From Faecalimonas sp. (GTDB taxonomy: Bacteria; Bacillota; Clostridia; Lachnospirales; Lachnospiraceae), in assembly GCA_045629665.1 (NCBI GenBank), contig JAZQRQ010000073.1, positions 7,892 through 71,891 on the forward strand: DNA of 64,000 bases. The letters are read 5' to 3'. Position 1 is the stretch's first letter. Every line of letters starts with the position of its first letter. Below the pieces are notes generated by a model. The model saw only the letters and a list, made by a program, of their open reading frames with translations. It was not told the origin of the DNA and made no database searches. Both the position numbers and the translations under genes were made by a program. Below, one piece after another: positions 4,888-21,529 of this stretch.

Positions 4888-5682
4888 TTATGCACCTCGA
4901 AAAATCACATCATTATGATATTCTATAAACTGACGTCCTGGATAAAATCTATCTGGTAGAATAATTTGTTTACCTTCATAGGAAAGCAACCATTCCTTTG
5001 ACTCTTTATCCATATCTGCATCCTTCAACACCTTCGAATTGAGAATGCAATAGTTTTTATCAATAGTAATCAACCCTTTATCAAAAGCCTTGTCATGGAG
5101 AGCATTGAGACACAGTCCATTGCTAGGATTGGTTCTTTCAGTCTTTTCATCACTATCTAGCCATGGTTTAATATGACTAGCAATTAAAACATTTGGCAAT
5201 TCCATTCCTGTGACACAACATCTATTCCTGTATGCAGAAAGTACCGACATTCTAAAGAAGTATTGCCCCACTCTTGCCTTCATTGCTTGTTCACGATATT
5301 TACCATCTGGCAGTTTCACTATTTCTTCTACATCGTCAATCTCGGCAACTTCTTCAATCGTCGTTTGACTCATCTTAGCTTTAATTATTTGTGCCTGATA
5401 AGATAACTCTGTCCAATCTTTAGCAAATTCTTGAAATATTTCTCCATCTAGCTTGCTAGCATTCGACATCCCAGAAACATTCCTTGCTCTTAATTCGGGG
5501 TCAAAATGTGCAAGATTCGCCATTTTCAATCCTACAGAACTAGGTGTTCTTCCTAGCAAGTTAGCCAATGCAATAATATCCTTATTTGCTTTGCTAATCT
5601 TTGAAAAGGGTATTTTACAGTATAAATCAAAAGCTAAAATTGTTTCTTCTCTAGTCCATTTTACACGATATTTTTCTGCCAT
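4888..5682 (-). CDS. HNH endonuclease (putative restriction endonuclease)
   Basis: RCCVTG...LIASHIKPW...NPSNGLCLNALHDKAFDKGLITID HNH signature; N-terminal WTREETILAFDLY helical domain. Confidence 0.85.
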   Translation of the reverse strand: MAEKYRVKWTREETILAFDLYCKIPFSKISKANKDIIALANLLGRTPSSVGLKMANLAHFDPELRARNVSGMSNASKLDGEIFQEFAKDWTELSYQAQIIKAKMSQTTIEEVAEIDDVEEIVKLPDGKYREQAMKARVGQYFFRMSVLSAYRNRCCVTGMELPNVLIASHIKPWLDSDEKTERTNPSNGLCLNALHDKAFDKGLITIDKNYCILNSKVLKDADMDKESKEWLLSYEGKQIILPDRFYPGRQFIEYHNDVIFRGA

Positions 5683-5714
5683 ACATTCACTCCGTATTTA
5701 ATAAACAATAAATT

Positions 5715-6647
5715 TTACATTTCTATTGGTTCATGATAGTTACACTTAGTTCTATCAAAGTAACCTTCGCATCCCCAAAACCAATTGTATCCACGCCTTA
5801 GCACTAATGTCCTTCCACAGTTCGGACATTTTCTTTTTAAACGCACAGATGCTCTCTCATCAATACCCTCTCTTATATTCGGAGTATAAATCTCCGGCAT
5901 GGAATGCATGTTCCCTGTTTGAAAATAATAATTTTCTGCATCCATTTTTGTTCTTCCATTTAACATCGCACTTTGTGGTATAATGCGCCCTTCTTTTATT
6001 AATTTAACTAGTTCGCTATGATAAATAAAGCCCGGAAAATCATATGTCCAATTTTTTCTATAAATAGTTTCAATCAAAATATCCCTGATATTACTTGGAA
6101 TTTCATTTTCTCTTTGATATAGAAGCTTTTTCTCTTTCATCAACCCTTCACCATCTGGTGTGAATCTAACCAACACAGTATAATCGTATTTGGCTGTTCC
6201 TTCCAAAAGATTTGGGATGTACTCTCCTTTTTTATTCCAATCTTTGGTTTCCAACAGCAATAAATCCCCATATGATTTTGTTGATTTTACAGAAAAATGT
6301 TTACCTTGACAATCCAAATCAAAGGAATCCCATTTGCCCAACTTATATTCTGAAATATCCGGTTTGTCTACATCTATATGACGACTTGTTAAATAGCGAT
6401 ATAGCGCAAACTCCGCCATTTTCCCTTGAAAAGTATTGATGAATATTTGCCCCATTGTTCTATGCATCACTCCACCACTTCTGGAATCTCTGTGGGCACC
6501 CTTTTTCGCATAAGACATATTATAGGCAAAATTAAAACATTCTCCTTTGTCTGATTGTAGCATAGTTGCATATGCCAAAAAGTGTTTCTTTTTTTGTACG
6601 TAGTAGTTATTTAACTCTATACGAAGTTCACCTGCTTCATAATCCAT
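5715..6647 (-). CDS. Putative PD-(D/E)XK restriction endonuclease with C-terminal C4 zinc ribbon
   Basis: QGKMAEF...WDSFDL...SVKSTK fits a PD-(D/E)XK core; C-terminal CPNCGRTLVLRRG...FWGCEGY...C resembles the topoisomerase-type zinc ribbon; 13 nt downstream of the C5 MTase. Confidence 0.55.
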   Translation of the reverse strand: MDYEAGELRIELNNYYVQKKKHFLAYATMLQSDKGECFNFAYNMSYAKKGAHRDSRSGGVMHRTMGQIFINTFQGKMAEFALYRYLTSRHIDVDKPDISEYKLGKWDSFDLDCQGKHFSVKSTKSYGDLLLLETKDWNKKGEYIPNLLEGTAKYDYTVLVRFTPDGEGLMKEKKLLYQRENEIPSNIRDILIETIYRKNWTYDFPGFIYHSELVKLIKEGRIIPQSAMLNGRTKMDAENYYFQTGNMHSMPEIYTPNIREGIDERASVRLKRKCPNCGRTLVLRRGYNWFWGCEGYFDRTKCNYHEPIEM

Positions 6648-6660
6648 TTACTTTTTCCTC

Positions 6661-7629
6661 TTATACACAACTCTTATATGCTTCTGCTATTTTTCCTGCT
6701 ATACGCTGTATTACCGATACACACACAGAATTACCAGCCTGCTTGTATAATCTCGCATCGCTCATATCGGTTGGTAGTTTGAATTTTTTAGGAAATCCCT
6801 GTGTGTTAAAACATTCATGCGGAGTCATTTTTCTAATTCCATGCATTGTTTTTATCAAGCATACATTATGACCACCTTCACCCTGATTTGCCGTAAGTGT
6901 AGGAACTACTCCACTTTTATTTTTTCTTACATATTTTCTTCTCCACTGATAAATAGCATTTTCATCATCCATTGCTTCGACAAGCTGTTTGTATATATCT
7001 CCTTTGTATTTTCCATCTGTATAATAATATTTTTCATCGACTAAATTTTTGAAATCAATAATATCAGAAAGTTTCTTTTTCAATGGTACAGGTAAAGGAA
7101 ATTCGAAGCTCTTATATTGTTCAATATCTTTGAAAGCCACAATATAGATTCTTTCTCTATTCTGTGGAATGTTTCCATATTCCATTGCATTTAAAACGGC
7201 ATATTTTACATGATAATTTTCTTTTTGTAATTCATCTACAATGACTGCAAAGGTATTTCCATTGTCATGTCCAACCAAATTCTTTACATTCTCCAAAAAA
7301 ACTATTTGAGGCTGCTTTGCTTTTATTATGCGTACCAATTCAAAAAACAAGGTCCCCCTACCTTTTTCATCATCAAATCCTTTTCTATATCCTGCAACGC
7401 TAAATGCTTGGCAAGGAAAACCAGCTAACATCACATCGAAATCCGGTATTTCTTCATTCTTTACTTCATGTATATCCCTACAATCTACCTTAACCTTGCT
7501 ATTTAACTCATAAGTCTTTACTGGATATGGATCAATTTCGTTTGCATAAATAACTTTAAATAATTTTGCACTCTCGAATCCAATATCTATTCCTCCCACT
7601 CCAGCGAAAAAGGATGCACATCTCAACAT
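6661..7629 (-). CDS. DNA (cytosine-5) methyltransferase, Bsp6I/LlaDII/NgoFVII-like (GCNGC/GCSGC family)
   Basis: Motifs FAGVGG, GFPCQAFS, ENVKNL, QNRERI, QAGNSV; target region YQWRRKYVRKNKSGVVPTLTAN closely resembles M.Bsp6I as recalled. Confidence 0.92.
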   Translation of the reverse strand: MLRCASFFAGVGGIDIGFESAKLFKVIYANEIDPYPVKTYELNSKVKVDCRDIHEVKNEEIPDFDVMLAGFPCQAFSVAGYRKGFDDEKGRGTLFFELVRIIKAKQPQIVFLENVKNLVGHDNGNTFAVIVDELQKENYHVKYAVLNAMEYGNIPQNRERIYIVAFKDIEQYKSFEFPLPVPLKKKLSDIIDFKNLVDEKYYYTDGKYKGDIYKQLVEAMDDENAIYQWRRKYVRKNKSGVVPTLTANQGEGGHNVCLIKTMHGIRKMTPHECFNTQGFPKKFKLPTDMSDARLYKQAGNSVCVSVIQRIAGKIAEAYKSCV

Positions 7630-7659
7630 AAATAATTCCTCCTAAATTCAACTACTGAT

Positions 7660-7688
7660 ATCATACCAAAAATCGCGGCGCGCCGCAA
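7660..7688 (-). promoter_or_regulatory. Sigma-A promoter of the C5 MTase overlapping a palindrome of two GCSGC sites
   Basis: Minus strand TTGCGG (7688-7683), 17 bp, TG-n-TATGAT (7665-7660); perfect palindrome GCGGCGCGCCGC at 7675-7686. Confidence 0.75.
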
Positions 7689-7720
7689 TGAATTTTTATA
7701 AAAAAGAAGACCAGATTTCC

Positions 7721-8935
7721 CTAGTCTTTTTCCTCTCCGTAAAATTGTTCATATGTTCCTACTTCAGCAAAATCAATTGAATAATCCAATTCTGCATTTT
7801 TAGTAAAAATAACACTGTCAACACCGAACAACTCCAACATTTCATATGTAATAACTGTACCTTCAGGTACTTCAAAAACATCTCTTAACAACCATTTCCC
7901 GAGCACCTTGTTTGGATTGCTCATTACCGATTTCCCAACCAACGCATTGTTCTTGTCTGCCTCTTGACATACCTTTGCAGATATTGCGGTTCCATCCGGC
8001 AAATGCAAAGTAAATGGAGTATCTCTTGGTGGAAAGAAAATTAAATCTCTTTGTCTATCTACCGCCTGATAAGGAATGTATATTTCATTTACATCTCTCG
8101 CTCGACCAGCTGCATTCCATTGATTTAATCCACTCTTTTCTGCAACAAACTTTTCTTTATCAGGTCCTCTTCTGGAATACAATGGCAAGCACAACATTGG
8201 TTTGTTATCCATTTTCATTTTTGGTATCGCCTCAAATTCTTTTACAATGCCTTCTCTATTAGTTAGCCAATCAAATTTAGGGTTACTTCCCGAATTTGAA
8301 CGCGCGAAAGATAGTAAAATTCTATAAGGATCTTCTACTACATTTACCTCAAATGAATCTAACAATTTTAAGTCATCAAATATCATATATAATGTGTTCT
8401 TTGACACACTGAAATGATATGTATGCTGTCCATCTGTAAAATATGTGTTATTATCATTGCCCCTATTAGGAATTATTTTAATGGAATCTATATCAATATA
8501 ATCAAATGCACATTCTAAAATTTGCATCATGTTTGGAACACGCTTGACAACATGATATATCATCTGTTCTATACCATGAAGCCTTTTAGTAACCCTTATT
8601 CTCTCATTTCTATACTCAGCAATTCTTTTTACAAGTTCAATCCCTGTAAGTTCTGAATAATTCTTCTTCAGTTTACCAAACTCTGCTACCTTCTGGTCAT
8701 CATTTCCAGTCCATGTTTTGAGTCCAATTCCAATACCATCTTTTTTAGCATCGGCAGAACAATCTGAACGCGCTAGGTTTTCAGCTTCTAAATATCTGCA
8801 GAAAATATTTTCATGCGCTCGATATGCCAAATATGGACAATCACTTTCAGAAAAGAGATTTGACAACTGTCCCATTATTCGAAGCATTTCTTTGTAATTT
8901 TGTTTATTTAAAAAAGGTTGTTTATCGTAAAACAT
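7721..8935 (-). CDS. NgoFVII-family restriction endonuclease (PD-(D/E)XK domain plus B3-like domain)
   Basis: LSNLFSESDCPYLAYRAHENIF, SADAKKDGIGIGLKTW, KSGLNQWNAAGRARDVNEIYIP, SNPNKVLGKWL; ATG 8935 after GAAGGAG. Confidence 0.8.
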   Translation of the reverse strand: MFYDKQPFLNKQNYKEMLRIMGQLSNLFSESDCPYLAYRAHENIFCRYLEAENLARSDCSADAKKDGIGIGLKTWTGNDDQKVAEFGKLKKNYSELTGIELVKRIAEYRNERIRVTKRLHGIEQMIYHVVKRVPNMMQILECAFDYIDIDSIKIIPNRGNDNNTYFTDGQHTYHFSVSKNTLYMIFDDLKLLDSFEVNVVEDPYRILLSFARSNSGSNPKFDWLTNREGIVKEFEAIPKMKMDNKPMLCLPLYSRRGPDKEKFVAEKSGLNQWNAAGRARDVNEIYIPYQAVDRQRDLIFFPPRDTPFTLHLPDGTAISAKVCQEADKNNALVGKSVMSNPNKVLGKWLLRDVFEVPEGTVITYEMLELFGVDSVIFTKNAELDYSIDFAEVGTYEQFYGEEKD

Positions 8936-9206
8936 ATCGCCTTCTCCTTTCAGATGTTTCAACACAACTTGTTTTTTTATTTTAACACTTGTACTAATAT
9001 TTAGCAATCTCGTATCTTTTCAAAACATTTATTCAGATTATTCTTTTATATGAAAAAGTAGAATCGAATATAAATAAATTTTCTATAACTACTGCACCCA
9101 AATGCTAGACTAAAACGATTTTCGTTATAATGTAAATTGTACGCCAAAAATCGTTCGTTCACGTGTCTATATATAATATAAACCTATAAAAAGGAGGTGA
9201 ATTCAA

Positions 9207-9611
9207 ATGGCTCAAGCAGGCGATAGATATATTGTAGAACTAACCCCGTCTCAACTGGGGTGGGGCGAAGAACGATATACTAATTCCAGACATACGAGAC
9301 AAGGTGAGGCCTATCTAGCAATACCTCGTAGATATGCTAAAGCATACAATTTATTTAATTCAAACCACACAAATGGACAGGACCTTCTTGGAACAAACAT
9401 TTATAACTGTATAAGTGTGGACGGCTTTCTAAATGACCAAGTAAAATCTCAAGGTTGCGTTCATGAAGGCGATGAATTCGCAAAGCAATTTGCAGGTAAT
9501 AATAATCTCAAACTTCTCGGCGATTGGTATAAACACATGCAAGCTGATGTCGGTGATAAGGTCGAAGTATATTTTCTTTCCCCTATTGATATTCAGCTGA
9601 CACTATTGTAA
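9207..9611 (+). CDS. 134-aa protein, putative stand-alone B3-like DNA-recognition domain
   Basis: Strong RBS AAGGAGGTGA and own terminator; motif order parallels the C-terminal domain of the neighbouring NgoFVII-family nuclease. Confidence 0.6.
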   Translation: MAQAGDRYIVELTPSQLGWGEERYTNSRHTRQGEAYLAIPRRYAKAYNLFNSNHTNGQDLLGTNIYNCISVDGFLNDQVKSQGCVHEGDEFAKQFAGNNNLKLLGDWYKHMQADVGDKVEVYFLSPIDIQLTLL

Positions 9612-9618
9612 AATTTTT

Positions 9619-9660
9619 CGGCTGTCGTTTAACAAAACACCTTGTTACGACAGCCGTTTT
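9619..9660 (+). terminator. Intrinsic terminator
   Basis: CGGCTGTCGT (9619-9628) / ACGACAGCCG (9647-9656) followed by TTTT. Confidence 0.8.
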
Positions 9661-9896
9661 ATATAATTTTATTTGATTTTAGTGTGTTCCTTCTGTGAGG
9701 TTGTAGCCTTGCATGAGTTTCTCATCCTACATACGAAAATAAAATTTATTTATTATTCCAAAAAGCATGCCGTATCTCCAGTTCTACTACAAAGCAACAA
9801 ATTGATTATCAAACCGATACATATAAAAAATAGGGGGTTTTAGCACACCAATGACTGTAGAGCTATTCAATGGAGTCATGTACTATTTTCAAAATA

Positions 9897-11297
9897 TTAA
9901 TCATCACATTCTATAACATTTGTAGATTTCGTTGTTTTTACAAACACTAATATATGCTCTCTCGTCATTGTTGTTTGTGGTTCTTTTTTTTCACCAACAT
10001 AAGAACTTATTTCCGGCATCCTTTTATTATGAATTTTCCTTGTAAAACTCGTCACTAAAGATAACTGGTACTGCGAACAAAGTTCAATCATTATATTGTT
10101 CATGAGTATTTCTTTTTTCGCAATTTTCCTATTCCCTAATGTCCACACCGAAACTGAGTTTTGTTTCATTTTCTTAGACAGCACAGACAAGAATAAATCA
10201 TAATCGCTATAAAAAGCGATAAGTTTGTTAACCTGTTTGACCGCACTTGCTTCAATTTCATTGCAGTGACTTTTTAAAGTACGTGATTTTCCCAACACGC
10301 TTTTTCGTCTTCTTGTCATACTTTTGTTTGCGGATTTACCACCCAACGATGCATTGTCAATTCCACATAAAGTGGATAATAAATCTTCGTCAAAATCATC
10401 ATCAATGTCAGAGCAATCAATCCACCTTAATGGCATAACCGAATATTGTCCATATGAAACCGTAGTGTGATTATCCCCATAAGGTGGCGAGGTCAAAACC
10501 AAATCAAATTTTTGCTTTGTATGTTTAAGATAAGTAATTGAATCCGACAAAACAATTTTTATGTTTCCCTTGTACGAATTCCCGTCTTTTTTAAGGTTTC
10601 CAGAAGTTTTCAATGTACTATAAAACGAGAAATATTTCTTTTCATTGTAGTTTAATGTTTTCAAAAAAAGCTCTATTGCGTCTTTATTATAATTAGCAAT
10701 ATCCGTTTTTTCTTTAATATGCAATTTATAGGTACAATCTCTAGAATTAGACACTATTCTGACAATTTCACAAAATGTTGCCCAAAAAAAGCGTCTAACA
10801 TTTATATCGTTATCTTTAATAATAGCTTCACGGAGAATTGTTAAGTCTTTTACGGCTTGTTCCGTAAACCATTTGTCGATTCCCTCAAAAGAATGTCTTT
10901 TTATTGAAGACGTCCTCAGAATATCGATTTCCTCTTTCAATTTTTTTACATGTTTCTCTAATATCTCGGGATTAATTATTGTTGTTTTAACTTTGCAGAG
11001 TAAAACTGCAAGTGGATTGATATCTATTCCAACTATATCAAGTCCTTTCAACATTCCTTCAACTAAAACAGTCCCTGATCCGGCAAATGGATCCAATAAT
11101 TTGAGACGCTTATTATTAGACTGCTCAAGACACACTTCTAAAATTTCCCTTTGCATTTTAGGAACCATCATAGCAGGATAAGTACAAAACCCATGAACAT
11201 AATCTCGCTCACTTTTTCTTTTTCCGCGATAATCCCAACGATCTTCAGATTCCAAAGTGAGTTGCTTAAACCTTGATTTAATATATTCAATACTCAT
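9897..11297 (-). CDS. N4-cytosine DNA methyltransferase, M.MvaI-like
   Basis: YPAMM, LDPFAGSGTVLVEG (motif I), TSPPYGDNHTTVSYGQYS (motif IV SPPY), RKIHNKRMP; same blocks as recalled for M.MvaI. Confidence 0.85.
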   Translation of the reverse strand: MSIEYIKSRFKQLTLESEDRWDYRGKRKSERDYVHGFCTYPAMMVPKMQREILEVCLEQSNNKRLKLLDPFAGSGTVLVEGMLKGLDIVGIDINPLAVLLCKVKTTIINPEILEKHVKKLKEEIDILRTSSIKRHSFEGIDKWFTEQAVKDLTILREAIIKDNDINVRRFFWATFCEIVRIVSNSRDCTYKLHIKEKTDIANYNKDAIELFLKTLNYNEKKYFSFYSTLKTSGNLKKDGNSYKGNIKIVLSDSITYLKHTKQKFDLVLTSPPYGDNHTTVSYGQYSVMPLRWIDCSDIDDDFDEDLLSTLCGIDNASLGGKSANKSMTRRRKSVLGKSRTLKSHCNEIEASAVKQVNKLIAFYSDYDLFLSVLSKKMKQNSVSVWTLGNRKIAKKEILMNNIMIELCSQYQLSLVTSFTRKIHNKRMPEISSYVGEKKEPQTTMTREHILVFVKTTKSTNVIECDD

Positions 11298-11323
11298 TTT
11301 ATCACCATCACGAATTTTAAAAA

Positions 11324-11352
11324 ATTATACTTTTTGATATATAAATTGTCAA
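11324..11352 (-). promoter_or_regulatory. Perfect consensus sigma-A promoter for the N4C MTase
   Basis: TTGACA (11352-11347), 17 bp, TATAAT (11329-11324) on the minus strand. Confidence 0.85.
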
Positions 11353-11383
11353 TAGAATATGAAATAACAAATGAATCAACTTG

Positions 11384-14194
11384 TTATTTTCTGTCATGAT
11401 AACAAGCACCATAAAATTCACACTGGATATTTTTACAAAAATCCTGATTTTTATTTTTGTCTACTTCAAATACCTTCTTATAATCATTCGTCTTAATAGT
11501 CTTTTCACATTCTCTTAATTTTTCGTTAAATGTATCTCTATCATCATCTAACAATTCAATTGTAGTAGGATTACTATTATTAAAATCATAAGATTCAATG
11601 TAGTCGACTTTTTCTCCAGTCAAGCTCTCGTATCCCAATACATATACCATTAATTGATTTTTTATTTGACTCTTAGTTAATACTTCGCTACTGGATTTAA
11701 AATCCACAAGAGTAATTGTGTGATTTAATTCATCTCTAACAAGATCTATTCTTCCATTGATAAACATATATTCATCAACACTAAAATCAATACTCTTCTC
11801 AGAAAACTTAATATACTTAAATCTAGAAGCATTGTTCTTAATATAGGAAGTCAGATTTCTCATTGCCTTTTCAGTCATTGCCTCATACAGTTTTGGAGAG
11901 CCGTATGGCAGATGTAAGTATTTTTTTACAATACTTGCAATAACCGTAGGATCATTATAACTAATTGTTTCATAGTTTTTGTGAATGTAATCTAACATAT
12001 TGTGGATTGATCTACCATAACCCATACGAATATTTAGAGGAGAACAAAAACCATATATATTAGTCATTTTGAATTTGTATGGACAATCAAACAAATCCTT
12101 AAGCAAGGAGAAATTCAATGTGATAATTTCATCCGCGGAGAATTTGGCTTTATTACTTTTTTCATATTCCTTGTCCAAATAGAGGCGAGTTTCTTTAAAA
12201 GGCGAATTCTTAGTCTCTACAAACGGAAATGCTGGAGCTTTATAATGTGTTTTCCCACTATCTGAAATATGGTTAGACCGAGTAAGAAAAAGAAACTTTT
12301 CACTTCTAGTCATTCCGACATAAAACACTCTTCTAATACTTTCGTCATCATCTTCATACTGTTGTTTTATTGTATTGTCATCTATGATCCCCCAAGCATT
12401 TAGACCACCAGGATTTCGTTGCGGAAAAATTGAATGTTTTGTTAAAAAAGGCATGAATACTACTGGATATTCCAATCCTTTAGATTGATGAAATGTCATA
12501 ATCCTTAAACACTTTACAGCCTTGAAATTAGGCGACAACCAACCTTCCGGATATATTTCTGGAGCCTCAAGAGTCAAAAAAGTCTCAAATGCTTTCAGTC
12601 TATATGAAGGAACCATATCAAGATTAATTTTTTCAAAATCATTAATCATCTCCGTAAACTTGCCCCAATTGTAAAGAATCTTTTCATCTGCAACACAGAA
12701 TAACTGTAAATCCATAAACAATTTTCTGATTGAACCTTGAATAGTATATTCATAATCATCCGATTCAAAAGGCAATTTTGTAAATTCTTCGATACTCTCT
12801 TTAATCTTATCTCTGCTAAGTGAAGTATATTTACACCATCTTGCTACAAGTTCAACAGGTACACCTGACACTTTGATCTTTTTCATTGTTTGTTCTTTGT
12901 TTGGCCCTTTATGATCAAATACAATCCGAGAAAAAATCAAAGAAAGTGTATCACATAAAATCATAATTTCGTCAGAATTAAACAAATTCTTTGTTCCTTC
13001 AACAATAAAGTCAATATTATTTTTTTCGAGTTCAGTGATTAATTCAGGTATTCTCTTTACAGAACTAACAAGGATAACCATATCGTCTAGATCCAATCTA
13101 AACTCTACTTCCTTACGTACATATTTACATCCAATCAATTGTTTGATTTTATTTACAATAAAATCAACTTCTGAGGCCCGATTGTCGAACTCATATGTAA
13201 TTATATCTCCTAGTTCATATTGTTGACTTTCGTTACTTTGCATGTTTTTTGCTATACGATTATTATTTTGGTTTATGACCTGCTTTGAAATTTCAGTAAT
13301 ACCCTTACTGCTTCTAAAATTGATATCTAAATCGATTTTTTCAACATTGGCATACGAATTAGCAAAGTTTTTTATGAAATTCAAATTGCTACCACGCCAT
13401 TGATAAATAGTTTGATCATCATCTCCTACAACACAAACAATTGCCCCTTGTTCAGAAAAGTACTTTATAATTTTTTCTTGTGCATCATTTACATCTTGAT
13501 ACTCATCAACTATTAAATATTTAATTTTTTTTGCAATAAAATCATCAAAAACACCACTCTGAAGTTTAGTGAGTGTAGTTGAAATAATGGAAGTGAAATC
13601 GAAAAATTTATTTTTTATTAACGTGGTTTCATACTTCTTGATATGTCCTTGAAGAACTGCGTCAAGTTTTTCTACCCCATGCTCTCTTCCAATGTCAAGA
13701 AACGTTTTATAGGCATTAATTGCTTTTGTTTTTACATCTGCCCTACTCCCCTCATTGAAAAGCTGATATGTTGTGCCATTAACTGCATGATATTTAACAT
13801 CATAAATACCATTTTCTCTGCGGTATCTCTTTATAAACAACTTAGTTTGAACATCATTTAGTGTTTCAAATGTTTTATATTCATCAGAAAACTCTTGCAA
13901 CATGTAAAGACAAAAACCATGTATTGTTCCAATATACATATTTGCAAGTCCCTCAAGAGAATGCTGTTGCTTTTCATAAGCTTCAAATACTTTTTGCTTT
14001 AACGAAGCCGCTGCTTTTTCTGTATAGGTAATAGCCACGATATTTTCAGGCTCTATACTAGGTTCATTAAGTAATTGAAGAATATGCGCAACCATAGTAG
14101 AAGTTTTTCCCGAACCTGCACAAGCAACTATTTGCATATTTTGACCAATTGTATTAATAGCTTTCTCTTGATTTTTCGTCCATTTTGTACTCAT
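11384..14194 (-). CDS. UvrD/REP-family SF1 helicase with C-terminal PD-(D/E)XK (RecB/Cas4-like) nuclease
   Basis: ACAGSGKT, LIVDEYQD, VGDDDQTIYQWRG, NFRS, MTFHQSKGLEY, RVFYVGMTR; nuclease GRIDLV...LVDFKSS...QLMVY; Cys in DCPYKF plus CKNIQCEFYGAC. Confidence 0.9.
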   Translation of the reverse strand: MSTKWTKNQEKAINTIGQNMQIVACAGSGKTSTMVAHILQLLNEPSIEPENIVAITYTEKAAASLKQKVFEAYEKQQHSLEGLANMYIGTIHGFCLYMLQEFSDEYKTFETLNDVQTKLFIKRYRRENGIYDVKYHAVNGTTYQLFNEGSRADVKTKAINAYKTFLDIGREHGVEKLDAVLQGHIKKYETTLIKNKFFDFTSIISTTLTKLQSGVFDDFIAKKIKYLIVDEYQDVNDAQEKIIKYFSEQGAIVCVVGDDDQTIYQWRGSNLNFIKNFANSYANVEKIDLDINFRSSKGITEISKQVINQNNNRIAKNMQSNESQQYELGDIITYEFDNRASEVDFIVNKIKQLIGCKYVRKEVEFRLDLDDMVILVSSVKRIPELITELEKNNIDFIVEGTKNLFNSDEIMILCDTLSLIFSRIVFDHKGPNKEQTMKKIKVSGVPVELVARWCKYTSLSRDKIKESIEEFTKLPFESDDYEYTIQGSIRKLFMDLQLFCVADEKILYNWGKFTEMINDFEKINLDMVPSYRLKAFETFLTLEAPEIYPEGWLSPNFKAVKCLRIMTFHQSKGLEYPVVFMPFLTKHSIFPQRNPGGLNAWGIIDDNTIKQQYEDDDESIRRVFYVGMTRSEKFLFLTRSNHISDSGKTHYKAPAFPFVETKNSPFKETRLYLDKEYEKSNKAKFSADEIITLNFSLLKDLFDCPYKFKMTNIYGFCSPLNIRMGYGRSIHNMLDYIHKNYETISYNDPTVIASIVKKYLHLPYGSPKLYEAMTEKAMRNLTSYIKNNASRFKYIKFSEKSIDFSVDEYMFINGRIDLVRDELNHTITLVDFKSSSEVLTKSQIKNQLMVYVLGYESLTGEKVDYIESYDFNNSNPTTIELLDDDRDTFNEKLRECEKTIKTNDYKKVFEVDKNKNQDFCKNIQCEFYGACYHDRK

Positions 14195-19349: not shown

Positions 19350-20069
19350 CTAGTCATTTTCTGTAAGTCGGCTGTCGCCGTTCGCATAATCAATCGTAAT
19401 TCCCGGTTGTGCATTATATACATACACGTTAAAGCACACACCTTTTCCGTCGTCCTCCACAGAGTAGGCTTCCATCTGCACACCACTCGCAAGCAGATTC
19501 GTCCCTTCAAAATGAGGCGTCACGCGATACATGACATGATTGCCGGTCTCTTCCACATACTCAGCAACCATATTTTCAAACGGAAGCATTCCTTCCACGT
19601 TCAGATAGCGGGTTCCTGTAATCAGATTCTTCGTGTTGGCATTTTCGCCCGTCAACTGATATCCGATTAAATGACACCTATTGTATAGATATTTGCCGTC
19701 TACAATATCGTATTTGATAGTGTGCCACCCTGTCGGTTTCACTTGTCCGATTGCGCCGCGCTCTTCCGTCGGCATAATTTCCTGACCGACGCACGCATAT
19801 GCTACACCACATCTGCCCAGGCTATCCAATTTAGAGTACTCTTCAAAACATTTGGTGGTCAGTTCATCGAACTCCGGCTTATTGCCGTTCATTTCTACAT
19901 ATGGCTTATCAGCGTATTCCTCTACTGCAGAGTAATCAGAGTTCGATGCACCCGGCAGAATCCCTACGTCTATCAGTTCACTCCGCACAACTAGGAGGGC
20001 TAGAACAAGGTATATGGCTATCTTAATCCACTTTGATGTTTTGCTTGATTTTGCTCTTTGTATTCGCAT
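19350..20069 (-). CDS. Membrane-anchored DNA/RNA non-specific endonuclease (streptodornase/EndA-like)
   Basis: YSKLDSLGRCG, RGAIGQVKPTGW, YNRCHLIGYQLTGENAN, NLITGTRYLN; N-terminal hydrophobic anchor; ATG 20069 after GGAAGGA. Confidence 0.88.
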   Translation of the reverse strand: MRIQRAKSSKTSKWIKIAIYLVLALLVVRSELIDVGILPGASNSDYSAVEEYADKPYVEMNGNKPEFDELTTKCFEEYSKLDSLGRCGVAYACVGQEIMPTEERGAIGQVKPTGWHTIKYDIVDGKYLYNRCHLIGYQLTGENANTKNLITGTRYLNVEGMLPFENMVAEYVEETGNHVMYRVTPHFEGTNLLASGVQMEAYSVEDDGKGVCFNVYVYNAQPGITIDYANGDSRLTEND

Positions 20070-20092
20070 TTTTGTTCCTTCCCGATATACCA

Positions 20093-20117
20093 CATCATGA
20101 CCATTATGGTCATGATG
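20093..20117. repeat. Perfect 25-bp palindrome
   Basis: CATCATGACCAT-T-ATGGTCATGATG. Confidence 0.9.
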
Positions 20118-20122
20118 AACTT

Positions 20123-21529
20123 TTATGAATAATACTTTTGATTCTTGCTTGATGGTTTATCCGGCGCAGTTCTTTTTAAGATTTTCAATTTAAGCATCTT
20201 ATTCAAATAATGTCTTCTAAAGTAAGAACGCTCCAATCCAAATTTTTGCATAATTTCACCTGCTGATTTTGGTTCTCTACAAAATTCTATTATTTGGCTC
20301 ATTACATCTTGGTCACTATCTTGGTCACTTTGACCAGGACGACTAGCATCACGCAAAAGCTCCATATACTTATCACAAGCATTACATAAAACCATAATAC
20401 CCGATTCACTAATTTTATAATCCGGCAACGGTCCATCATATAATGCGCAAGCCTCTCTGATTTTTTCGAAACTTCTTCCCCAAGCTTCTATCATACCACT
20501 CTTAAAGAATACTTCTGCCAACTTAGGATTATATGGTTTTGAAGAGTGCTTCTCAAATAATTTTTCTGTTGAATCAAGCTCAGGCGGCATCGTTCCATCA
20601 TTCCAAATATAGATTTTATCTTCGTATACACTGATTTGAATCGGGTTGCAACTACGATAATCTTTATGAATAATTGCATTTATCAATATTTCACGAAAAG
20701 CGTCTTTATGAAACATGAACTGTTCAATTCTTTGAATCCCTTCATAATAAATCAAAGCTTTCATGTACTTTGTGTATACCAAATCTACTGTTCTATCCAC
20801 TTGCTCAATTAGAGGTCCATGCACCTCATCTTGATACACTAAATCGGAATGAGATTTCCCAAAATAACCAATTTTTATATAAGAGCCAGTTACCCATTTT
20901 TCCGGATCTTTGTAAAATGCCAACATCGCTGCTCGATTCAAATAACCTTGCTCATCAATGAGGTGCAGATTTTCCATCAAAATGGAGTCTTCTACACCCA
21001 CTTCTTCTTTCGTTAACCGACCTCTTTTTACAGCTTTCTCTTTGAACAGTTGTATAGCGTCTTGCTTTAAATCTTGTACTGAAATTTTAGGTAAAGGTAC
21101 ACCATCCCAAGTTCTTCCTTGCGACTTCAATAATGCTCGCTCCAATTCTTTTCCGGTAATTTCACGCATGGTACTTCCGGAACGATAATAGTATTTTCCG
21201 TGATAACTAATTAATGATGGATATTTATCAACGATAATCTTTAAATATTCTAGTTCGTCCTCGTAACAATGAATGACGTCTGCTATAATTCCCATTGTGT
21301 CGGTAATTTTGTTTGGAATTTGCTCTAGCAATACCTCTGAATGATGAATTCCGATTACGTTACCTTTATCATCTTTTCCGATGTATAAGGTTCCTCCGTG
21401 TGCATTAGCATAACCGCAAATCCATTTGAGATACTCGTCCCTCCATGATTCTTTCCATTCTACGGATTGATTTTCTTTCTGATGTTCTTTCATAATTGAC
21501 TTACCAAAGACTCTCTCAGCATTCCCCAT
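20123..21529 (-). CDS. AlbA_2 (Schlafen-like) domain plus RecG-C/HATPase_c_4-like domain plus wHTH protein
   Basis: ENQSVEWKES...ICGYANAHGGTLYIG, FREILINAIIHKDY, PYNPKLAEVF, APDKPSSKNQKY; start may be 21493. Confidence 0.8.
   Translation of the reverse strand: MGNAERVFGKSIMKEHQKENQSVEWKESWRDEYLKWICGYANAHGGTLYIGKDDKGNVIGIHHSEVLLEQIPNKITDTMGIIADVIHCYEDELEYLKIIVDKYPSLISYHGKYYYRSGSTMREITGKELERALLKSQGRTWDGVPLPKISVQDLKQDAIQLFKEKAVKRGRLTKEEVGVEDSILMENLHLIDEQGYLNRAAMLAFYKDPEKWVTGSYIKIGYFGKSHSDLVYQDEVHGPLIEQVDRTVDLVYTKYMKALIYYEGIQRIEQFMFHKDAFREILINAIIHKDYRSCNPIQISVYEDKIYIWNDGTMPPELDSTEKLFEKHSSKPYNPKLAEVFFKSGMIEAWGRSFEKIREACALYDGPLPDYKISESGIMVLCNACDKYMELLRDASRPGQSDQDSDQDVMSQIIEFCREPKSAGEIMQKFGLERSYFRRHYLNKMLKLKILKRTAPDKPSSKNQKYYS

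Follow-up and report, generated by a model that had tools for sequence, protein, structure and literature searches.

A stand-alone B3-like gene in a restriction island

We analysed a 64,000-nt stretch of contig JAZQRQ010000073.1 from Faecalimonas sp. (assembly GCA_045629665.1, positions 7,892 to 71,891 of the forward strand), hereafter the window, and focus on a 134-aa open reading frame (ORF) within it, the small B3 gene, whose product is predicted to bind DNA through a B3-like domain that makes up the entire protein. The gene lies in divergent orientation to the minus-strand gene of a Type II restriction endonuclease (REase), next to which stands a gene for a C5-cytosine DNA methyltransferase (Table 1). 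Across its relatives, this free-standing and conserved B3 family is accompanied by one methyltransferase lineage, while the nuclease beside it is exchanged among at least five types. The first-pass annotation of this DNA had described an ORF divergent from the REase gene, with a strong ribosome-binding site (RBS) and its own terminator, and ORF calling, sequence reading and RNA folding agree with it on both coordinates and orientation. It was also right about the extent of the REase gene, whose ORF spans 7721-9007 and whose start we place at 8935 because homologues of ~403 aa begin at the MFYDK methionine.

The terminator-like hairpin downstream of the small B3 gene folds at -20.6 kcal/mol (z -6.95), a value equalled by 0 of 200 shuffles, and went unflagged in a simple consensus terminator scan, which found 0 terminators. 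Upstream, a TATAAT was assigned by eye as the -10 element, and the inverted repeat around it (arms of 9 nt, 24 nt apart, with 100% complementarity in the repeat search) is possibly an operator of the gene. No counterpart of this repeat was found among 23 upstream regions of relatives, and it is specific to the window. The 271-nt gap between the REase and small B3 genes contains no ORF and no upstream remains of a nuclease domain.

Table 1. Coordinates of the small B3 gene, its expression signals and the neighbouring genes in the window
Feature	Position	Strand	Basis or remark
HNH_2 endonuclease, 264 aa	4888..5682	-	PF13391 E 3.2e-13; PADLOC HNH PDLC04132 E 3.6e-88
Uncharacterised 310-aa protein, same minus-strand gene row	5715..6647	-	Zn-ribbon PF01396 24.1 bits, under cut-off 32
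C5-cytosine DNA methyltransferase, 322 aa, subgroup M.1	6661..7629	-	PF00145 E 1.7e-89; TIGR00675 E 2.1e-101
GCGGCGCGCCGC, two inverted GCSGC pentamers	7675..7686	.	Between REase stop and methyltransferase start, AT-rich gap
Type II REase, 404 aa, N-terminal PD-(D/E)XK and C-terminal B3-like domain	7721..8935	-	PADLOC REase_II PDLC03479 E 1.7e-83
Inverted repeat AACGATTTT / AAAATCGTT around TATAAT (9126-9131)	9114..9155	.	Repeat search; 5' of small B3 gene
Shine-Dalgarno AAAGGAGGTG	9190..9199	+	Sequence reading; ends 7 nt 5' of small B3 ATG
Small B3 gene, stand-alone B3-like protein (DNA-binding predicted)	9207..9611	+	ATG-started ORF, 134 aa
Terminator-like hairpin, then U-run UUUUAUAUAAUUUU	9619..9656	+	RNA fold
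N6/N4 DNA methyltransferase, 466 aa, then 936-aa UvrD helicase with C-terminal PD-(D/E)XK	9897-14194	-	Methyltransferase: PADLOC MTase_II PDLC03322 E 4.9e-88

Fold and family of the small B3 protein

The only Pfam match of the small B3 protein is PF20731 (RE_NgoFVII_C), where its 26.4 bits exceed the curated cut-off of 23.8 (E 7.8e-6, residues 13-110), and the phospholipase D (PLD) catalytic domain is not on its chain; most homologues score just under the cut-off or show no match at the thresholds used. The plant-type B3 family PF02362 gave no match at E<=0.1, the likeness being one of fold alone. No Pfam helix-turn-helix (HTH) family was matched, and NCBIfam, PHROGs and PADLOC returned nothing meaningful. 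An AlphaFold2 model made with 22 homologues (pLDDT 86.4, pTM 0.83) is one B3 domain throughout, a beta pseudobarrel. Foldseek ranked R.NgoAVII first for this model (4rct / 4rd5, E 3.3e-4, probability 1.00), followed by LlaJI.R1-N, plant B3 domains, BfiI-C and EcoRII-N; a second fold search, independent of Foldseek, also placed 4rd5_A at the top (Z 10.6, root-mean-square deviation 2.8, 113 residues aligned), and the eleven ranks below it are B3 or B3-like domains without exception. We conclude that the small B3 protein is a single-domain B3-like pseudobarrel of the NgoFVII/NgoAVII recognition-domain family. The first-pass annotation had taken the gene for a nuclease-free, B3-like one standing on its own, and the Pfam match, the model, both fold searches and the conserved family all bear this out; the modelling and structural comparison that it proposed returned the pseudobarrel, with R.NgoAVII as the top match.

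Profile comparison of the small B3 family with 17 PLD-B3 REases (hhalign) gave E 1.8e-9 and a probability of 96.3% over 101 columns, with the motifs SxLxWG..R..R..EAYIPIP and AK.F...LG.W common to both sets. The best-conserved regions of the family are the N-arm (~residues 12-40, motif SQLGWG..RYT.SR..R.GEAYLAIP) and the C-arm (~74-100, motif K.QG....GD.[YF]AKQF). Net charge was dropped as a functional clue: isoelectric points span 4.7-10.8 across the small B3 family and 4.4-9.5 among the B3 domains of REases, ranges too broad in both sets to be informative.

The neighbouring REase scores 35.8 bits against PF20731 (cut-off 23.8; residues 278-403 of the long ORF), and its model (pLDDT 67) resembles 3ndh_B (Z 9.1) and NaeI (Z 8.3) over residues 1-218 and 4rd5_A (Z 7.0) over residues 242-391. 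The small B3 protein had been said to mirror this recognition domain. All three motif pairs named in support were indeed recovered column for column when the small B3 family (50 sequences) was aligned with the REase family (17 sequences; hhalign E 2.7e-4, probability 41.9%, 85 columns), but the mirroring holds at family level only, because BLASTP of one protein directly against the other gives no significant match (best E 1.7). Set against the E of 1.8e-9 obtained with the PLD-B3 enzymes, the value for the REase family indicates a homology that is real but remote, and the small B3 protein is no specific copy of the neighbour's domain. Judged from these alignments, the B3 domain of its own neighbour is more distant from the small B3 protein than those of PLD-B3 enzymes are.

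In a near-length search, 21 of 22 candidates passed E<=1e-3; identities were 50-90%, and almost all were 134 aa long. A profile search of 1.84 billion representatives (50% identity) returned 190 at E<=1e-3, of which 120 also passed 1e-10 and 30 passed 1e-30; their length is mostly 120-145 aa, matched from residue 1 onwards, and the nearest cluster in the ESM Atlas comprises 2222 'hypothetical' proteins of ~130 aa, mainly from Bacillota. The gene is under purifying selection, with dN/dS values of 0.08-0.23 for pairs with unsaturated dS (0.44-1.16). Some relatives are larger: 5 of the 150 listed representatives (P0108, P0133, P0158, P0160 and P0162; 638-656 aa) carry a B3-like domain N-terminal to AAA_15/AAA_21, and one such fusion protein matches the PADLOC profile of PtuA, the Septu ATPase (E 2.8e-116). 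B3-PtuA fusions of this kind would be a defence ATPase bearing a sequence reader. Also among the matches listed are P0022, P0026, P0059 and P0170 (~225-240 aa), whose C-terminal tail shows a faint similarity to the Tudor domain of UvrD/PcrA (PF21196 E 0.0022, under cut-off; PDB 7egt_B E 0.025); a search with the tail alone found 2 proteins, and we treat the likeness as a lead only. The ESM Atlas also holds further bacterial clusters of 121-132 aa, one of them annotated as EcoRII N-terminal domain protein, and additional stand-alone B3-like families are suggested in Pseudomonadota. As to a parallel in stand-alone EcoRII-N, the one match among 401 Bacillota genomes was a full-length EcoRII-like ORF.

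A constant methyltransferase and changing nucleases

Loci of the family were gathered from three kinds of source (8 genome loci, the best 80 of 146 confirmed metagenome stretches and 5 viral-contig loci), which with the window made 94 sources. A crude ORF caller missed the B3 ORF in 4 of these, which were dropped, leaving 90; neighbours within four genes were clustered, their representatives were named with Pfam, and dereplication at 90% B3 identity left 52 clusters, to which the counts below refer. A 5-methylcytosine (m5C) methyltransferase is the constant companion of the small B3 gene, lying within four genes in 39/52 clusters and adjacent in 25, and the clusters without one are mostly short contigs. 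Vsr occurs within four genes in 27/52 and adjoins the gene in 17, in either gene order and with gaps of 1-86 nt, and an REase with a B3 domain is found in 24/52 (10 adjacent). Other neighbours within the same distance are a Z1 helicase-like protein (15/52), an HTH protein (14/52), an REase with a FokI cleavage domain (12/52), HNH_2 (6/52), AAA_5 (3/52) and the LlaJI nuclease (2/52).

Within restriction-modification (R-M) operons the small B3 gene can be tightly packed, as in M - FokI-like R - B3 - M - Vsr, with gaps of 5-31 nt or overlaps, and in other loci it and the first gene of an R or M operon diverge, as in the window; a further architecture is HTH-M-Z1-R(PLD+B3)-B3. In a one-contig genome (G160, from the 401-genome sample) it faces HTH - M - FokI-like REase, with Gabija-like and Shedu genes nearby. 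The cassettes are found on mobile DNA, with relaxase/MobC, integrase and insertion sequence neighbours. Broken copies occur as well: in L104 (G238:C4, ~6950-9020) the gene is split by a DDE transposase and adjoins Vsr, an AlwI/BpuJI-like REase and an m5C methyltransferase, the copy in G202 has 2 in-frame TGA codons, and G255 holds a short remnant.

The companion methyltransferases belong predominantly to one subgroup, M.0 (61/79), which stands beside CglI-like (PLD-B3 + Z1), NgoFVII-like, FokI-like and LlaJI-like nucleases with an identity of 63-94% across those contexts (one outlier, 53-59%). The window and two other loci, L001 and L008, pair the second subgroup, M.1, with a PD-(D/E)XK-B3 REase. 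A maximum-likelihood tree built from 51 B3 rows (one over-long row excluded) requires at least 21 changes of nuclease type; the lowest possible number would be 5, shuffling gave a mean of 29.8, and none of 200 shuffles reached so low a count. Distance correlations between the small B3 protein and its partners are weak (M.0 0.23, Vsr 0.12, FokI-like 0.27, PLD-B3 0.39, Z1 0.45), and the arm motifs are invariant with respect to cassette type. We conclude that m5C R-M cassettes carry the small B3 gene as a modular and optional component, not bound to one nuclease.

In the window, the island of about 4888-14194 has a GC content of 31-35%, with housekeeping flanks at 40-45%. A sample of 401 genomes drawn from the order contained the small B3 gene in 6, the neighbouring REase family in 9 and both in 2, so that 7 of the 9 genomes carrying the REase family do without small B3, and the 2 genomes of the same genus have neither. 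This distribution is best read as that of an optional, horizontally mobile add-on, which is optional also for the neighbouring REase family. The best assignment of the small B3 gene is to the m5C cassette on its left (the REase and M.1 methyltransferase genes), not to the pair on its right. Within four genes of small B3, that pair, the UvrD-nuclease and the N6/N4 methyltransferase, co-occurs in 0 of the 51 other dereplicated clusters, and in L001, the locus of closest synteny, its place is held by Hachiman-like genes (HamA and a helicase). By comparative context it looks like a separate two-gene module unrelated to small B3, and the suggestion that the protein is a specificity subunit of the UvrD helicase-nuclease is not borne out. 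To the left of the methyltransferase, the 310-aa protein may be another nuclease of the cassette; in locus L030 a relative of it stands directly upstream of the small B3 gene, with a Bsp6I-like REase on its other side. Farther along the window (19350-21529, minus strand), a gene for an NS_2 DNA/RNA non-specific endonuclease adjoins one for a Schlafen AlbA_2 + HATPase_c_4 + Fic-like_C protein.

A possible reader of GCSGC-type sites

Bsp6I cuts GCNGC and LlaJI cuts GACGC. The companion REases of the small B3 protein include matches to RE_NgoFVII, to RE_Bsp6I and to a CglI-type R with Z1, and the available excerpts of PMC4267653 and PMC5737866 give GCSGC as the target of M.CglI and M.NgoAVII and GCCGC as that of CglI. 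The cassette in the window may therefore have a GCSGC-type target. Two such pentamers, inverted and the sole intergenic GCSGC sites of the island, make up GCGGCGCGCCGC, which ends 9 nt 5' of a TATGAT and overlaps the -35 region of this promoter candidate, assigned by eye. The inverted pentamer pair, with a differing 2-nt spacer, also precedes the M.1 gene in L001, L008 and L105; that the pentamers are kept while the spacer varies points to GCSGC as the functional unit. In cassettes of this type, GCGGCGCGCCGC is a candidate site for methylation-dependent control.

We suggest, tentatively and as the most plausible of several readings, that the small B3 protein, lacking a nuclease, reads the GCSGC-type target of its cassette and is a modulator or controller that works through DNA. 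The B3 domain of R.NgoAVII binds DNA through its N- and C-arms, according to the available text of PMC4267654. The small B3 protein would likewise bind duplex DNA in the manner of the homologous REase domains, with its N-arm and C-arm gripping the major groove, and would read the GCSGC-type target of the cassette's methyltransferase, probably only when this is unmethylated. Since the protein lacks both a catalytic domain and a constant protein partner, its most likely mode of action would be site occupancy. It could then serve as a controller where targets sit in promoters, as with the double site before the methyltransferase gene, and elsewhere it would modulate the access of the cassette's enzymes. 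A role as regulator or as site protector, both raised in the first-pass annotation, is possible.

Several observations weigh against the reading of the small B3 protein as a GCSGC reader acting through DNA. Its DNA binding, specificity and methylation sensitivity are all carried over from homologues. The gap between the small B3 and REase genes has no GCSGC site; moreover, the L105 cassette and its genome have the double site but no small B3, so the site is independent of it. GCSGC is unenriched in cassette intergenic DNA (22 in 27,957 nt, compared with 344 in 300,467 coding nt); intergenic copies are absent from 38/52 clusters. An operator search in 23 dereplicated upstream regions found only -10-like or AT-rich shared k-mers, and many cassettes already carry an HTH controller (the 14 of 52 counted above). 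In the window's own genome (G000), GCSGC is not avoided (observed/expected 1.02); the most depleted GC-containing 5-mer there is CCWGG (0.68, z -13), and GCWGC is depleted as well (0.88), word statistics that are inconclusive for a recently acquired island. Finally, no reader other than small B3 is evident in two rows, namely B3 - Z1 (890 aa) - DUF4420 PD-(D/E)XK on the Priestia plasmid NZ_CP024036 (L094, 7001-11118) and Z1 (863 aa) - DUF4420 - AIPR - 78-aa ORF - B3 in L072 (6-6429), which fits a recognition subunit better.

A methylation-sensing promoter role across the whole family was considered separately and is disfavoured, given that GCSGC is not enriched, that the upstream regions yielded no conserved operator, that the window's own genome does not avoid GCSGC and that the double site occurs in L105.

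The main rival would make the small B3 protein exactly such a subunit, acting in trans as the recognition half of a split B3-nuclease and serving nuclease or motor proteins without a reader, with Z1 + DUF4420, HNH_2 or the 310-aa protein as candidate partner. Going by PDB titles and the available text of PMC4267654, the B3-like domain is a nuclease recognition module in every characterised homologue. Fusions of B3 exist with PLD, PD-(D/E)XK and the PtuA ATPase, and the AAA5 protein of LlaJI-like cassettes might, by analogy only, be a further fused form, the N-terminal domain of LlaJI.R1 (6c5d) being among the fold matches. The B3 - Z1 - DUF4420 rows of L094 and L072, the HNH_2 genes near small B3 and the position of the 310-aa family in L030 also speak for it. 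However, no reader-less nuclease family is constant beside the gene, the architectures HTH-M-Z1-R(PLD+B3)-B3 and M-FokI-like-B3-M-Vsr hold only enzymes that already have a reader, and the neighbouring REase family mostly occurs without small B3. With the repeated changes of nuclease type on the B3 tree and the weak partner distance correlations added, we consider the subunit unlikely. A factor linked to the methyltransferase and serving establishment or restriction alleviation, one that would cover unmethylated sites and so delay cleavage, or promote de novo methylation in a new host, would agree with the methyltransferase being the most constant neighbour, with the patchy distribution and mobile surroundings of the cassettes, and with the strong RBS, own promoter region and terminator in the window. 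Yet the distance correlation with M.0 is weak, and site occupancy would hinder the methyltransferase too; we find this role improbable.

A role as an independent DNA sensor of the defence island, detecting unmethylated or foreign DNA and signalling to other effectors, we judge quite improbable: the B3-PtuA fusions and the defence-island surroundings (Hachiman-like genes in L001, Gabija-like and Shedu genes in G160) would suit it, whereas the stand-alone form sits in R-M operons with short gaps and not beside Septu genes, and the fusions are a small minority. It seems very improbable that the protein helps very-short-patch repair by guiding Vsr to T:G mismatches at the methylated site. Vsr is indeed a frequent neighbour in either order, but it is expected beside m5C methyltransferases anyway, entire architecture classes lack it within four genes, and its distance correlation is the lowest of any partner; the idea is weakened further because the window's own genome, which is 97.6% complete, has no Vsr match. 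Lastly, the broken copies in G238, G202 and G255 might suggest that the gene is a decaying, functionless remnant of a B3-containing REase. With a length of ~134 aa kept over 190 representatives, the dN/dS values given above, an RBS and terminator of its own and no nuclease-domain remains upstream, it can hardly be that.

To our knowledge, bacterial B3-like domains have been known only in fusion with nucleases or NTPases, and plant ones as transcription-factor domains. Full-text literature searches, supplements aside, yielded no account of bacterial B3 proteins that stand alone and belong to R-M systems, and neither did the available portions of PMC4267654, PMC4267653, PMC3973309, PMC11347163, PMC12707154 and PMC5379612. 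The recurrence of the gene beside cytosine-methylase restriction systems of gut bacteria suggests an unstudied accessory component. More speculatively, and with little confidence, stand-alone B3 readers could form a fourth class of R-M genes beside R, M and C/V: methylation-sensitive and paired with a hub m5C methyltransferase, they would sense unmethylated own targets and then time or gate the docked nuclease module, or block foreign DNA without cutting it. If the small B3 protein does read the methylation state of the target, this would be a new principle of control or gating in R-M systems, and the protein would be a compact, natural and sequence-specific DNA binder.

The closest relative of the small B3 protein by both profile and fold is the C-terminal B3 domain of R.NgoAVII and the NgoFVII-type PLD REases (PF20731; 4rd5, 4rct), with which it shares the N-arm motif and a YxK.F...L..LG.W motif. 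It differs from these enzymes in having no PLD domain, in being a separate gene and in implying no need for a partner ATPase, and its N-arm exceeds that of the PLD-B3 enzymes in related loci by ~5 residues. The same pseudobarrel is found in the C-terminal domain of BfiI (Z 7.6), the N-terminal domain of EcoRII (Z 6.9), UbaLAI (Z 5.7) and the N-terminal domain of H. pylori LlaJI.R1 (Z 8.5), all of which are parts of multidomain nucleases or NTPases and have no Pfam-detectable sequence similarity to the small B3 protein. The C proteins of R-M systems are HTH dimers with conserved C-boxes. The small B3 gene resembles theirs in being a small gene within R-M cassettes, predicted to encode a DNA-binding protein and often divergent from the operon that it possibly controls, and it departs from them in its B3 fold and in the presence of HTH genes besides it in many cassettes; no conserved box was found in the 23 upstream regions. 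The plant B3 transcription factors RAV1, FUS3, VAL1 and ARF share its fold (FUS3 Z 9.6, RAV1 Z 8.5), although PF02362 does not match the small B3 protein and no operator was found in its upstream regions; their B3 domains are nuclease-free, sequence-specific regulators of transcription that form parts of larger eukaryotic proteins. The bacterial family also bears on a possible passage from nuclease recognition domain to stand-alone regulator, the route that has been proposed for the plant B3 factors.

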